A stretch of DNA of 64,000 bases, taken from NCBI GenBank assembly GCA_002099625.1, contig GCA_002099625.1_4857.1; one strand, 5' to 3'. The notes beneath the pieces are model-generated. The model saw nothing but the letters and a program-made list of their open reading frames with translations, was not told the DNA's origin and ran no database searches. Positions 4,534-10,020 of this stretch are shown here, one piece after another (positions within the stretch are counted from its first letter, which is position 1; the number at the start of each line of letters is the position of its first letter). A program made the translations under genes and the position numbers. Source of the DNA: Escherichia coli. GTDB taxonomy: Bacteria > Pseudomonadota > Gammaproteobacteria > Enterobacterales > Enterobacteriaceae.

Positions 4534-4580
4534 ACGAGCCGGACTATGTTTATGGACATAGTCCGCTCGTTCTACTTTTT
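4534..4580 (+). terminator. rho-independent terminator after fibre gene
   Basis: about 14-bp imperfect inverted repeat ACGAGCCGGACTATG / CATAGTCCGCTCGT followed by TCTACTTTTT, just before the RBS of the first Cys-rich peptide gene. Confidence 0.5.
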
Positions 4581-4591
4581 AAGGAAGCGTA

Positions 4592-4984
4592 ATGGCGATA
4601 TCTATTAAAGACGTCAGAAACCGCGTCCAGATAGTCGAAGCTAACATGGCGACAGGCCCCCGTATCGACGCGCAAGTGGCCTCTAAAGCCCATAATGCGG
4701 CAGACCGATTTGGGGGTTGGACGAAAGCACAGCTAGATTGCGGCGGGACATGTTCTTGGACGTGCTCTAACGGTTGCTCGCATGGCTGTTCGAGCTGTTC
4801 AGGAAGCTGTTCTGCTTCTTGTATCGGTAGCTGTTCTTCGACGTGTGGCGGTAACTGTTCTGGTTGCTCTGGTTGTTCTGGTGGTTGCAGTAGTAGCTGT
4901 ACCGGTAACTGTTCAGGTGGTTGCGGCGGCTCTTGTTCCGCAAACTGCTCCGGGGCCTGCTCCGGCGGCTGTTCAGGTCGCTAA
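4592..4984 (+). CDS. Cys/Ser/Gly-rich repeat peptide A (putative radical-SAM substrate / precursor-like protein)
   Basis: 130 aa; AAGGAAG RBS then ATG; N-terminal about 49-aa Cys-free leader-like region, then 81-aa core with 22 Cys at period about 4 (CSxx repeats); ends CSANCSGACSGGCSGR. Confidence 0.6.
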   Translation: MAISIKDVRNRVQIVEANMATGPRIDAQVASKAHNAADRFGGWTKAQLDCGGTCSWTCSNGCSHGCSSCSGSCSASCIGSCSSTCGGNCSGCSGCSGGCSSSCTGNCSGGCGGSCSANCSGACSGGCSGR

Positions 4985-4994
4985 GGGGGATTAA

Positions 4995-5399
4995 ATGGCA
5001 ATTGGATTAAAAGAACTGAATAACCGATTAAACACGATCGATGCAAACGCTTTAAAGAACACCACGAATGTGCAAAACTACATTCGCAATAAAGCTACGA
5101 ATAACGCCGACTTGTTCGCAGGTCAAGGCCGTTCGCACTATGACTGTGGCGGCACATGCTCTTTTAGTTGCTCGAGTTGTTCTGGCGGGTGTACTGGGTC
5201 CGCTACGGGTGGTTGTGGGTCGACTTGTTCCGCAAACTGTGTATCGGGCTGTAGCAGCAGCTGTACGGGCTGTAGCTCTTCGTGCTCGGGTGGTTGTAGC
5301 GGCACGTGCACAGGCAGCTGTTCTGGGGGTTGTGGTAAATCCTGCTCCGCAAACTGCTCAGGTGCGTGCTCTGGTGGTTGTTCAGGTCCTAACTCCTAA
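4995..5399 (+). CDS. Cys/Ser/Gly-rich repeat peptide B (paralogue of A)
   Basis: 134 aa; AGGGGGA RBS then ATG; leader-like N-terminus similar to A (M-A-I-x-(I/L)-K-(D/E)-(V/L)-(R/N)-N-R); core begins HYDCGGTCSFSCS and ends CSANCSGACSGGCSG as in A. Confidence 0.6.
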   Translation: MAIGLKELNNRLNTIDANALKNTTNVQNYIRNKATNNADLFAGQGRSHYDCGGTCSFSCSSCSGGCTGSATGGCGSTCSANCVSGCSSSCTGCSSSCSGGCSGTCTGSCSGGCGKSCSANCSGACSGGCSGPNS

Positions 5400-5414
5400 C
5401 TGACGGAGGCTTAT

Positions 5415-7468: not shown

Positions 7469-8789
7469 TAGCGAACAGCAAATCCAGTACACACCACGCA
7501 CGTATCAGGTTGTGACTAACCTGTCATGTAACCTGGACTGCGAATACTGCTACGAGCGTAAATATCCGCGTAACAACAAAGTAGCAGACGTGATTGATTT
7601 TATCCACGCTTGTTTCGAGCGTGATAAAGATATCCCGAACGTTGAAGTCATCATCGATATCATCGGTGGTGAGCCGTTCATGCAGCCTAAACTTCTTTTG
7701 GCGGCCTTTGAAACCGCAGAGAAGTTATGCGCAGAACACAATCGCCCGTATATGTTCAGTATCTCCACGAACGGTACGCTTCTGGACCGTCCGCTGAACA
7801 AAGAAATTATCGAGCGCTGGAAAGACAAACTGTCTATTGGGGTCTCCATCGATGGTTTACCTGAAGTCCATGACAAATATCGTATCTTTACCACGACGCG
7901 TGAAGGGTCGTACGAAGCTGCGGTACGCGGTTACAATTATCTGAAGAGTGTTGGCATCGCTGAACTGGGCGTAAAAGCGACGTTTACGATCGATACATTG
8001 CCGCACTATGCCGCCAGCATGAAATCGTTAATTGACATGTCCGGCGGTGGTACCATTTCTGGTAATGTAACGTACGAAGATATCCTGCCGCGCCATATGG
8101 CGTTGGATATCGCGAACCAGATGATGGACGTGATGGACTACTGGATTGAGAAGGGTCTGCACACCAACCCGCGTAACACGATTACACACATCATCCCGGA
8201 TGGCCTGAACTTTATGGCAACTTGGGACCCGGATTGGCGTGACAAACTCTTGCACGACGACTCTGTTCGTCTCGACCCAGAACGCCTGAAACCGTACTGC
8301 GGTACGTTGACGCACATGACCTGTCTCGGCTTTGATCGCAAGATTTACGGTTGTAACCGTTTCATGTCCACGGTAACTTCCCGCTCTGCTGTAGCGGAAC
8401 TGGTCGGTCGTGAGTTTGTGAGTCTGGACGGTGGTAAGCTGTTAGAAGAGATTCAAACGCAGTACACCAACTACCCAGAAACCTGTTTAGGGTGTCCGAT
8501 GAAGCACAGCTGCGGTAGCTGCGCAGCAGCATCGTACGAAAACGGTGAAGGTACACTGGAAGACCGTAAAGCGTATCACGCCGAGCGTCGTCAGTGTGGT
8601 TGGACTACTGCGAAGCTGATGGCGGCGGAATATTGGTATCAAAAAACTGGTACGACTCGCGCATCAGATTTGCACGATAAATCCATGTGCTATTGTTCAC
8701 GTTGTGTACGCCAACGTGCCGAAGCAGAAAAATTACAAAACGGAGCCCAGAATGAAGTCAATACTGATTCACAATTTTACGAAGCGTAA
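7461..8789 (+). CDS. radical SAM enzyme with SPASM-like C-terminal Cys cluster
   Basis: 442 aa; ATG overlaps the stop of the upstream rSAM gene by 8 nt (translational coupling); CNLDCEYC motif; IGGEPF motif; C-terminal PYCG..MTCLG..GCNRF..ETCLGCPMKHSCGSC seven-Cys pattern typical of SPASM auxiliary clusters. Confidence 0.8.
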   Translation: MSNSEQQIQYTPRTYQVVTNLSCNLDCEYCYERKYPRNNKVADVIDFIHACFERDKDIPNVEVIIDIIGGEPFMQPKLLLAAFETAEKLCAEHNRPYMFSISTNGTLLDRPLNKEIIERWKDKLSIGVSIDGLPEVHDKYRIFTTTREGSYEAAVRGYNYLKSVGIAELGVKATFTIDTLPHYAASMKSLIDMSGGGTISGNVTYEDILPRHMALDIANQMMDVMDYWIEKGLHTNPRNTITHIIPDGLNFMATWDPDWRDKLLHDDSVRLDPERLKPYCGTLTHMTCLGFDRKIYGCNRFMSTVTSRSAVAELVGREFVSLDGGKLLEEIQTQYTNYPETCLGCPMKHSCGSCAAASYENGEGTLEDRKAYHAERRQCGWTTAKLMAAEYWYQKTGTTRASDLHDKSMCYCSRCVRQRAEAEKLQNGAQNEVNTDSQFYEA

Positions 8790-9318
8790 ACTGCACTTGG
8801 TCGATCGCTTCCTGCGCAAAAGCAAGCTGTACAATGTGCACGCAATTGTGGCAGGGGAAGACTTCACTGATGAAATCCAAAGCCTGTTGATTAAATACGG
8901 GCTGAATGTGATGATCCCGGTCTACTGCGTTGAGAAAGGACACGAGTCTGTCGCGGAAATCGAAAAGCGCAACCCTGGCTTTGAGAAGCGACTGCTTGCA
9001 TACCCACGCCACAAAATCGAACTGCTACGTCACTCTATTGATGAAGCCAGTCCTGAAAGTTTAGTGGCATTGGGCTTGTCATTCCCGCGGATGCGTATTC
9101 GTAACTTACGCTCCAATAACCCGGTTGACGCTTATTACACAGAACGTCAAATCTTCGAAGAACACCTGCTCCCGCAGTTGGAAGAAGAAGAGCAACACAA
9201 CATTTCTCTGTTGTGGGCCGGTAACCTCGATCAGGACTTCCAGATGCTGGACTTCGGTTTGTTGTTAGAACTTGGCCTGATTGAGGAGGACGAATGTCTG
9301 TTACTGACAAAAGCTTAA
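8752..9318 (+). CDS. hypothetical protein (operon member)
   Basis: ORF 8704-9318 (apparently GTG start) trimmed to ATG 8752 with GGAG at 8742-8745; overlaps end of rSAM gene; no motif recognised. Confidence 0.45.
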   Translation: MKSILIHNFTKRKLHLVDRFLRKSKLYNVHAIVAGEDFTDEIQSLLIKYGLNVMIPVYCVEKGHESVAEIEKRNPGFEKRLLAYPRHKIELLRHSIDEASPESLVALGLSFPRMRIRNLRSNNPVDAYYTERQIFEEHLLPQLEEEEQHNISLLWAGNLDQDFQMLDFGLLLELGLIEEDECLLLTKA

Positions 9319-9965
9319 CGAACGAAGAGATCCGCGCCCGTTATTTCCAGCGCGATTTGCCGATTGATCGTCACGGTAATTTCATGGAACGAATCGGTGC
9401 GCAGGATCAGGGTCGTACTGGATTTTGTGCATTACTCCATTACCATCTCATCGAAGGGATGTCTGATAAAGAAGCCCTGGCACGCATGAAGCTGTATGAG
9501 ATGTCGGAGATTGAAGCTAACTTCACATTGAAACGCACGAAAGAGTTTATTGCTAATGTGCTGGAGATTGACCTCGACGAAATTCGCGGGAATCTGAAAT
9601 CTACCGCACGTTACATTTACGAAGACGTGCAGAAGATGCTGTTGGAACTTGACCATCGCTACGAAGATGAGCGCCATGGTTATATCGAGTTTGAAGGTAG
9701 CCACTTTCAAGCCGATGAATCGTCGCGTACCATCCTCGGTCAATATATTCAGGCGGATACCGCACCAGAATACTGGCTCGATACGCTGAATACTAAGCAC
9801 AGTCCGTTTACAGTAGACCAATGTAAAGCGTTGTTGGCCGCTATTGTTGCACGTGACCAAGTGTTGCACTCAGCAATGGCAGATAACAAACGCCAAATCC
9901 GTGAGTTGGCTGAAAAGCGCGATTACACTGGATTAAAAACATTGTCCGAATCTCTCGGCATGTAA
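9294..9965 (+). CDS. hypothetical protein (last gene of operon)
   Basis: 223-aa ORF; GAGGAGGA RBS then ATG; overlaps previous ORF by 25 nt; followed by terminator. Confidence 0.5.
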   Translation: MSVTDKSLTNEEIRARYFQRDLPIDRHGNFMERIGAQDQGRTGFCALLHYHLIEGMSDKEALARMKLYEMSEIEANFTLKRTKEFIANVLEIDLDEIRGNLKSTARYIYEDVQKMLLELDHRYEDERHGYIEFEGSHFQADESSRTILGQYIQADTAPEYWLDTLNTKHSPFTVDQCKALLAAIVARDQVLHSAMADNKRQIRELAEKRDYTGLKTLSESLGM

Positions 9966-9982
9966 GCAAAGAAAATAAAGGC

Positions 9983-10020
9983 CCTACCTCCCCGAAGGGA
10001 GGTAGGTACCTTTTATTTAT
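9983..10020. terminator. bidirectional rho-independent terminator at convergence of plus operon and minus-strand gene
   Basis: CCTACCTCCC-CGAA-GGGAGGTAGG hairpin with T-rich runs on both sides (TACCTTTTATTTATTTC on plus; CTTTATTTTCTTTG on minus). Confidence 0.55.

Follow-up and report, generated by a model that had tools for sequence, protein, structure and literature searches.

A two-enzyme radical-SAM operon beside the tail genes of SPN3US-like jumbo phages may modify fibre-tip proteins with cysteine at every fourth position

What use would a bacteriophage have for two radical S-adenosylmethionine (rSAM) enzymes placed next to its tail genes and preceded by small proteins with cysteine (Cys) at every fourth position? 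The question is raised by positions 4534-10020 of a 64,000-nucleotide stretch of DNA (the window, hereafter) from the Escherichia coli assembly GCA_002099625.1, contig GCA_002099625.1_4857.1. By megablast against phage genomes, these positions are covered 100% at 98-99% nucleotide identity by Seoulvirus, namely the SPN3US-like jumbo phages of Salmonella, E. coli, and Proteus, and relatives in other genera match at no more than about 80% identity. Numbered as in SPN3US, the region spans gp167 to gp161 in descending order. Eight packed plus-strand genes occupy 4592-9965, encoding three small proteins (CysA, CysB, and CysC) followed by gp165, gp164, gp163, gp162, and gp161; all eight co-oriented open reading frames (ORFs) are present as a first-pass annotation, made from the sequence alone, had described them. 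Neighbouring genes overlap by 8 nt (gp164/gp163, ATGAGTAA), 38 nt (gp163/gp162), and 25 nt (gp162/gp161). The answer proposed here, with a probability of roughly 0.55, is that the operon is a phage two-enzyme variant of the CXXX-repeat/radical-SAM system, which modifies a stand-alone fibre-tip module, probably with thioether cross-links.

The predicted substrates are CysA (4592-4984, plus strand, 130 aa) and its paralogue CysB (4995-5399, plus strand, 134 aa). In both, the first 49-50 residues are free of Cys; in CysA this 49-aa N-terminal part consists of a helix and a junction motif and is followed by an 81-aa repeat tail. The cores of the two proteins (81-84 aa) are composed of C, S, G, T, A, and N, with the consensus C-S-G-(S/G/T/N). 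CysA contains 21 Cys, of which consecutive residues are spaced by four in 17 of 20 cases, and CysB contains 20, with a spacing of four in 16 of 19. A six-frame regular-expression scan of the whole 64 kb detected such Cys arrays in CysA and CysB only. The repeats are degenerate at the DNA level, and the periodicity is therefore maintained at the protein level. CysC (5415-5621, plus strand, 68 aa, GTG start) is a short paralogue that retains the N-terminal part, the junction, and the initial CxGxCSWxC and has 4 Cys in total, so that of the three Cys-rich paralogues claimed earlier, two fit that description and CysC does not. It is conserved as a gene of about 69 aa in all five genera. PHROG 6085 (function not known) is the sole PHROG matched by the three proteins, with E values from 1e-24 to 1e-41. 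The CXXX repeat model TIGR04114/PF27846, a 'radical SAM target' model, gives 18.4 bits for CysA, 17.1 for CysB, and 13.7 for CysC, just under its cut-off of 20 for the first two, and the trait that it describes, a long period-4 Cys run with small residues between, is seen in CysA and CysB. Precomputed PF27846 annotation is found on the relatives P0166, P0268, and P0269 and on a fibre-like protein of locus L009. In the CysC orthologues of Derbicusvirus and Wellingtonvirus (L004 3960-4166, L005 3963-4169, and L007 3955-4161), the leader and CxGxCSW are followed by no further Cys (…SSGGAKAVTW), and these Cys-poor forms may serve as a cap, decoy, or regulator rather than as a substrate.

Are these ORFs genes at all? 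The GenBank/RefSeq records of SPN3US omit CysA and CysC and carry as 'gp166' an alternative frame over CysB (window 5068-5403), other related records have reverse-strand ORFs annotated over the Cys genes, and full-length CysA is absent from a collection of 5.8 billion protein clusters. It could be argued on these grounds that the Cys-rich ORFs are low-complexity frames over a real gene, gp166. This explanation is effectively refuted, however. The Cys frame is the only stop-free frame in Seoulvirus, Machinavirus, Wellingtonvirus, and Derbicusvirus (the last represented by two phages), and the A-, B-, and C-type orthologues conserve both their N-terminal parts and their Cys columns at 25-69% identity. 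Each of the eight ORFs of the operon is preceded by a Shine-Dalgarno-like ribosome-binding site, the match to PHROG 6085 reaches an E value of 1e-40, and in-frame fusions of homologous repeats to tail fibres exist in other phages. The absence of CysA from the cluster collection therefore means that gene callers routinely miss it.

Both rSAM genes are already annotated in SPN3US-like genomes, and both products carry the CxxxCxxC and GGEP motifs, as had been claimed, and pass the Pfam Radical_SAM cut-off. The gp163 protein (7461-8789, plus strand, 442 aa), a radical-SAM/SPASM peptide maturase with the Cys-X3 tails as its predicted target, lacks an N-terminal recognition domain, since its CxxxCxxC motif already lies at residues 23-30. 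The rSAM cysteines C23, C27, and C30 and the SPASM cysteines C280, C288, C298, C342, C345, C351, C354, and C379 are conserved in an alignment of 22 sequences, which gives gp163 the cluster motif and the C-terminal SPASM Cys set of the TIGR04115 family. This family of maturases with CXXX-repeat targets is also its best NCBIfam match (125.6 bits, E 3e-36; cut-off 350), followed by the ranthipeptide maturase PapB (NF047865, residues 22-357 of gp163; 113.6 bits, E 1e-32; cut-off 340). The closest solved structure is the thioether-forming SCIFF maturase CteB (5wgg), with an E value of 3e-10 for the single sequence and 3.4e-40 for the gp163 family profile, the latter covering the rSAM core and SPASM domain at CteB residues 102-431; the next structure, anaerobic sulfatase-maturating enzyme (anSME), is matched by the profile at 1.7e-20. 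These profile searches favour the earlier proposal of a locus resembling those of rSAM-modified peptides that are ribosomally synthesized and modified post-translationally (RiPPs).

The second enzyme, gp164 (6554-7468, plus strand, with the ORF open from a TTG at 6518), is a short rSAM protein that has a TNG motif besides CxxxCxxC and GGEP and scores 58.7 bits on Pfam Radical_SAM. It matches generic rSAM cores only, reaching 40 bits on QueE (cut-off 260), 39 on NrdG (131), 43 on MoaA (284), and 34 on anSME (349); gp163 reaches 57 bits on anSME. Classification with QueE, NrdG, or anSME, which had been named beforehand as an outcome that would overturn the RiPP-like interpretation, was found for neither enzyme, nor was classification with MoaA. 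In the gp164 alignment, C40, C44, C47, C257, and G285-C286 are invariant, and C260 is present in five of seven sequences; the two to three conserved C-terminal Cys perhaps form a twitch-like auxiliary site. The protein is a predicted second maturase.

Do the enzymes and the Cys arrays belong together beyond this operon? CysA and CysB lie 2.1-2.9 kb upstream of gp163 on the same strand, which is the adjacency expected of a TIGR04115 system. Distant gp163 homologues (32-39% identity) were detected in quite different phages, and a scan of IMG/VR confirmed at least 455 gp163 relatives. A same-strand CXXX-repeat ORF, mostly no more than about 2 kb upstream, is present in 54 of 64 retrieved IMG/VR loci (24-37% identity), although the 64 contain near-duplicates and this proportion, to the cost of the proposed reading, overstates the number of independent observations. 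Two arrangements can be distinguished. In type (i), found in gut-phage contigs, a single enzyme occurs, and it is a true TIGR04115 member (434 bits in L041 and 499 bits in L061; cut-off 350); its targets combine an N-terminal domain of some 110 aa with as many as 92 Cys. In type (ii), which includes SPN3US, TIGR04115 and PapB give the SPASM enzyme about equal scores, and it is accompanied always by a gp164-like short rSAM protein and usually by a gp165-like protein. The gp164-like partner of the SPASM enzyme was recognized, for example, in L008, L009, L011, L028, L029, and L035, and the complete module (CXXX gene, gp165-like gene, short rSAM, and SPASM rSAM) is found in a Deferribacter prophage, a 213-kb T4-like contig, and a 140-kb contig, among others. 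In a 284-kb viral contig (L034, 7137-9197), the short and the SPASM rSAM proteins are fused into one chain of 686 aa, which supports the two enzymes working together.

Individual loci show the range of the targets. The type (i) locus L041 (5756-7198) encodes a 480-aa protein with 92 Cys, and a 279-kb viral contig (L032, 6883-7176) encodes a 97-aa target that ends in GCESCAMGCHGPQ and has 3 Cys; a gp165-like gene and two rSAM genes come directly after it. It was also considered whether the second rSAM enzyme tracks the invariant Trp of the CSW motif; this was ruled out, as L011, L028, L033, and L034 have two rSAM domains and no such Trp.

The co-occurrence bears on an explanation in which the Cys-X3 proteins are metal- or Fe-S-binding, or disulfide-rich, scaffolds or chaperones for gp167 and gp168, and the rSAM enzymes act on something else, for example a further tail protein, a cofactor, or a nucleic acid. 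Period-4 Cys arrays could indeed chelate metals, gp164 resembles nothing more specific than a generic rSAM core, gp161 and gp165 stand where fibre chaperones usually do, and the rSAM chemistry on the Cys tails is predicted only. On the other hand, the enzyme is closely tied to a CXXX gene in widely differing phages and bacteria, an association that is the very basis of TIGR04114/TIGR04115, every one of gp163's nearest characterised relatives modifies peptides that contain Cys, and no alternative substrate is conserved across the loci. This explanation is accordingly regarded as improbable.

What, then, links the Cys arrays to tail fibres? In type (ii) loci, the CXXX array almost always stands at the C-terminal end of a larger protein (255-568 aa), one example being the 302-aa fibre of the Deferribacter prophage. 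Ahead of the array, the Cys-free part matches PHROG tail-fibre families in L028 (2e-54), L034 (2e-32), and L035 (1e-10), and the fused genes neighbour baseplate wedge or central-fibre J genes. A blastp alignment over 125 aa joins CysB to the C-terminus of the 568-aa fibre-like protein in L009 (E 1.4e-8, 40% identity). When CysB was searched exhaustively by HMMER among 1.8 billion representatives, 102 proteins were recovered, the listed ones reaching 1803 aa; nine of these sequences (185-1679 aa) were read, and many have coiled-coil or fibre-like N-terminal parts with the same junction. In one of 1679 aa (P0167), the C-terminal CXXX array extends over about 560 aa. The junction, approximately A-x-N-A-x-x-L-x-G-Q-x-x-x-Y-Y-R/D, is Cys-free and is followed by C-x-G-x-C-S-W-T/S-C. 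A position-specific scoring matrix derived from 12 fibre-like proteins, in which it covers the 22 Cys-free residues ahead of the array, was applied at the single homologous position of the SPN3US-type proteins: CysB scored at z 5.4 (reached by 0 of 6970 null 22-mers), CysC at z 4.1 (1 of 6970), and CysA at z 3.3 (8 of 6970). In addition, the N-terminal helix of CysA aligns with the pre-junction helix of a 212-aa homologue. The SPN3US Cys proteins hence look like the last 50 or so residues of a fibre shaft plus a CXXX tip, encoded as separate genes. The FGG/AG of the leader was also considered as a double-glycine cleavage site and was ruled out, since the motif occurs inside fused fibres and neither a C39 peptidase nor an exporter accompanies it.

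On this basis, a mechanism can be outlined for the proposed two-enzyme fibre-tip system. CysA, CysB, and minimally CysC would be the substrates, each consisting of the N-terminal helix, the junction (NAxxLxGxxxxY-x-CxGxCSW), and, in the longer two, the Cys-every-fourth tail. Late in infection, they would be bound through the helix, the junction, and the CxGxCSW start, either by gp165 or directly by the enzymes. By homology to its nearest characterised relatives, gp163 would abstract hydrogen and join Cys sulfur to neighbouring carbons, most likely yielding Cys-derived thioether cross-links, and gp164 would add a second type or register of modification. The stiffened arrays may then assemble, perhaps as a CysA/B/C trimer, onto gp167 and gp168, as suggested by the fused homologues and by the position of the genes. 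The most likely product would be an appendage of the fibre or baseplate that is stiffened covalently and resists proteases and heat; a diffusible peptide is less probable. What the sequences show is the gene anatomy, the homology, the conserved module and its synteny, and the fusions to fibres elsewhere; the substrate relationship, the chemistry, incorporation into the virion, the trimer, and the role of gp165 are inferred. Of the two outcomes envisaged by the first-pass annotation, the comparative data favour a cross-linked virion component over a peptide acting on the host. A more general claim is advanced more tentatively, at somewhat less than an even chance: many phages may use RiPP-type rSAM chemistry to mature a structural protein, converting a fibre-tip Cys-X3 array into a ladder of thioether or other radical cross-links, with the SPN3US array split into CysA, CysB, and CysC, perhaps as a heterotrimer on gp167/gp168.

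The diffusible alternative deserves the closest comparison. It holds that CysA, CysB, and CysC are leader-core precursors of a free, cross-linked RiPP of the sactipeptide or ranthipeptide kind, which lies outside the virion and is released at lysis or acts on the host or competitors. The small size of the proteins, the Cys-free N-terminus before a Cys-rich core, and the tandem paralogues all suit this explanation. Among bacterial relatives of gp163 (one genome per species; best identity 23-28%), CXXX ORFs were found in 13 of 80 loci. Several Firmicutes loci (L092, L094, L095, L101, L104, and L129), with Clostridium botulinum ATCC 25763 and Ruminiclostridium hungatei as examples, have the peptides downstream of a TIGR04115-like enzyme; these CXXX peptides look like uncharacterised bacterial RiPPs. 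The family thus appears to span free-peptide-like and fibre-fused targets, with SPN3US seemingly between the two, and because of this span the free-RiPP explanation keeps appreciable weight, unlikely as it is judged to be. Searches of the operon with Pfam, NCBIfam, and PHROGs revealed no gene for a leader peptidase, for export, or for immunity; the supposed leader bears the tail-fibre junction motif; most lineages with two rSAM enzymes have the repeat fused to proteins of 255-568 aa, whose N-terminal part matches tail-fibre families in three of these lineages; and the operon travels with tail genes.

Several observations weigh against the fibre-tip reading, and some of them are shared with the free-peptide alternative. 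The modification of CysA, CysB, and CysC is a prediction from sequence. In the Firmicutes loci, tandem CXXX peptides of 53-75 aa with leaders of about 20 aa have the classical look of RiPP precursors. The AlphaFold2 monomer of CysA has a predicted local distance difference test score (pLDDT) of 42 and is unstructured except for the N-terminal helix, a model that is uninformative on the fold of the repeat. The three Cys proteins are also missing from the published virion lists of SPN3US, having been outside the annotated protein set that was searched; as they were not annotated and their cores lack K and R, the mass spectrometry (MS) data are silent on them rather than negative. The N-terminal parts do contain tryptic peptides, namely VQIVEANMATGPR, IDAQVASK, and FGGWTK in CysA and LNTIDANALK, NTTNVQNYIR, and ATNNADLFAGQGR in CysB. 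As for the enzymes, gp163 falls below all family cut-offs, including those of TIGR04115 and PapB, and its chemistry is therefore not transferable from any of these families; its eight conserved SPASM Cys resemble anSME and differ from the open site of CteB; and no RiPP recognition element (RRE) was found in gp163 or gp165. The CysA and CysB cores also lack the Asp/Glu acceptors of the PapA kind, and the target locus in the 279-kb viral contig adjoins an SNF2-type helicase and is not in a tail module.

With regard to known systems, the nearest is the CXXX-repeat system (TIGR04115 with TIGR04114/TIGR04117 and PF27846), defined in silico, in which a SPASM maturase likewise stands beside a Cys-every-fourth protein; its true members also adjoin CXXX proteins in phage contigs. 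The gp163 clade differs as a sister clade with an about equal PapB score, by the addition of a second, short rSAM enzyme and a gp165-like protein, and by targets that bear a fibre junction or a whole fibre. A literature search found no experimental paper on the TIGR04114/TIGR04115/PF27846 system. PapB, which acts on PapA (freyrasin), is similarly a SPASM rSAM enzyme without a long N-terminal extension and has a substrate with a periodic Cys motif, built of Cys-X3-Asp pairs. The phage cores contain neither Asp nor Glu and hence no Cys-X3-Asp/Glu pairs, and PapA is a small precursor of the secreted type and not part of a fibre module. CteB, the maturase of CteA (SCIFF, thermocellin; PDB 5WGG/5WHY), aligns with gp163 over the rSAM core and SPASM domain, whereas gp163 lacks the N-terminal recognition domain (the alignment begins at CteB residue 102), its family conserves an additional Cys at a position that is not Cys in CteB, and it scores 53.9 bits on TIGR03974 (SCIFF) against a cut-off of 425. 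The enzyme anSME likewise has a SPASM domain with eight Cys in the auxiliary region and acts on a Cys or Ser of a protein rather than on a small peptide; the operon has neither a sulfatase nor a C/S-x-P-x-R motif. Distal fibre modules with their own maturation factors, such as T4 gp37 with gp38/gp57A and P2 H with G, are comparable in gene order: in the related loci, the baseplate wedge gene and the CXXX-ended fibre are followed by the gp165-like gene at the usual chaperone position, and the SPN3US operon follows gp168 and gp167. Known fibre chaperones, however, assist folding only. Compared with general RiPP loci, CysA and CysB are 130-134 aa long with a Cys-free part of about 50 aa, homologous cores occur in proteins of 255-1803 aa, and no leader peptidase or transporter family was detected among the eight proteins by Pfam, NCBIfam, or PHROGs.

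The pairing of CXXX proteins and rSAM enzymes is therefore already known as a curated in silico family; new is the two-enzyme, gp165-containing, tail-fibre-associated form, which fails the TIGR04115, PapB, and SCIFF cut-offs. The literature search found neither a description of enzyme-installed radical chemistry on a tail fibre nor a published account of a phage RiPP of this kind. If the proposed reading and its more general form are correct, this would be the first enzymatically 'RiPP-matured' virion component and a new covalent stabilisation among the post-translational modifications of virions. The orphan CXXX-repeat rSAM family, a widespread set of enzymes and targets, would gain a function, largely as a phage tail-fibre maturation system, and an explanation would be at hand for genes that all SPN3US-like jumbo phages have and that the reference genome annotates wrongly. 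It would also join the rSAM peptide chemistry of antibiotics and cofactors to phage host-recognition machinery, two fields that have not yet met, and the result would surprise RiPP and phage specialists alike. Cross-linked tips could be relevant to how stable phages are in therapy and biocontrol and could offer a scaffold for protease-resistant engineered binders. As amber-mutant genetics and a virion proteomics pipeline exist for SPN3US, the idea is directly testable.

How firmly is the operon tied to the tail? In five genera it is placed after gp168- and gp167-like tail genes, and the genes further downstream differ. In the window, the homologue of gp168 (10-3276, plus strand, C-terminal 1088 aa; 98% nucleotide identity to SPN3US; PHROG 7449) is a candidate baseplate or tail-fibre protein of the virion, and the homologue of gp167 (3288-4526, plus strand) is a coiled-coil virion tail protein that matches PHROG 2163 (virion structural protein) and, weakly, tail-fibre PHROGs, with Pfam giving coiled-coil noise. 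MS of SPN3US virions identified gp160 and gp167-173 as virion proteins, with gp168 as a tail protein (PMC5694885, Table S1). It was also reported that gp167 gave 880 peptide-spectrum matches (PSMs) in wild-type virions and 5 in tailless particles, and gp168 1591 and 5, respectively (PMC10052503, supplement). The gp167 protein is a possible shaft partner of the Cys proteins. As the plus-strand run begins at the first base of the window with gp168, and further plus-strand ORFs occur at 10698-11189 and 33618-34379, the earlier statement that the operon is the only plus-strand unit is incorrect.

The boundaries of the operon had been described as a pair of terminators that insulate it. At the 5′ side, a stem-loop (4534-4569) with a T-rich tail (to 4580, plus strand) follows the gp167 stop and has UAUG in its loop. 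The hairpin is real and stable (-25.7 kcal/mol, z -3.56), yet a consensus scan made no terminator call for it, and the element 4534-4580 is better regarded as a putative partial terminator or RNA element. The hairpin ends about 22 nt before the ATG of CysA, no sigma-70 promoter was found ahead of CysA, and there is no room for one between hairpin and start; strict insulation at this end is therefore too strong a claim, the likelihood of read-through or attenuation from the gp168-gp167 unit being at least equal. A hairpin of different sequence occupies the same position in four further genera (Machina, Kwan, CR5, and Phobos); the element could be an attenuator or a phage-polymerase signal. Such post-gp167 hairpins (window 4537-4569, L006 at about 3103-3134, L005 at about 3073-3106, and the equivalents in L004 and L007) have UAUG in every loop. 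The 3′ boundary stands as described: an intrinsic-terminator-like hairpin at 9983-10006 is called on both strands, closes the operon, and is shared with the convergent gp160, and a GC-rich hairpin with a T-run after the gp161 orthologues is conserved in five genera. A search of 3000-12000 against Rfam gave nothing at the gathering threshold.

The remaining genes of the operon encode accessory proteins. The conserved protein gp165 (5644-6531, plus strand) is modelled by AlphaFold2 with a pLDDT of 89.8, and no structural neighbours were found for it in PDB or BFVD. Its homologues adjoin a CXXX gene in unrelated phage loci, as detected by blastp in L011 (E 1.7e-11) and by profile matches in L008, L029, L033, L034, and L035 (E down to 1e-24), and it is proposed as a substrate-presenting or fibre-assembly factor. 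The gp162 protein (8752-9318, plus strand; PHROG 7988) always follows gp163, in synteny across five genera, and gp161 (9294-9965, plus strand; PHROG 8169) has the Pfam domain DUF4376 (38.1 bits) and a weak match to PHROG 2837, 'tail protein'. Both are confined to the SPN3US-like clade; they were tried as parts of the universal module and rejected, since no homologues exist in other phage lineages. In the SPN3US data, gp163, gp162, and gp161 are classed as non-virion proteins, with trace PSM counts (PMC10052503, supplement), as expected for enzymes, chaperones, or assembly factors. In several genome records of Salmonella phage SPFM (LR5359xx; H57, H78, H84, and H85; P0081-P0084 and P0141-P0157), the copies of gp163 and gp165 are fragmented or frameshifted, probably as an artefact of assembly and not a biological feature.

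Just downstream of the operon, on the minus strand, lie a DUF1353 protein (11840-12481; annotated in RefSeq as a tail assembly chaperone) and an endolysin with GH108 and PG_binding_3 domains (12770-13423). Their counterparts in Machina, Kwan, CR5, and Phobos are on the strand of the operon, which indicates that the region is inverted in Seoulvirus. DUF7941 is present in gp160 (10047-10574, minus strand) and in minus-strand paralogues at 19071-20513, 28173-29060, and 31769-32611. The SPN3US papers describe the DUF7941 paralogues as abundant head proteins, an assignment that conflicts with a 2026 preprint on phage Goslar, in which DUF7941 belongs to a baseplate-associated 'fibre cloud'.

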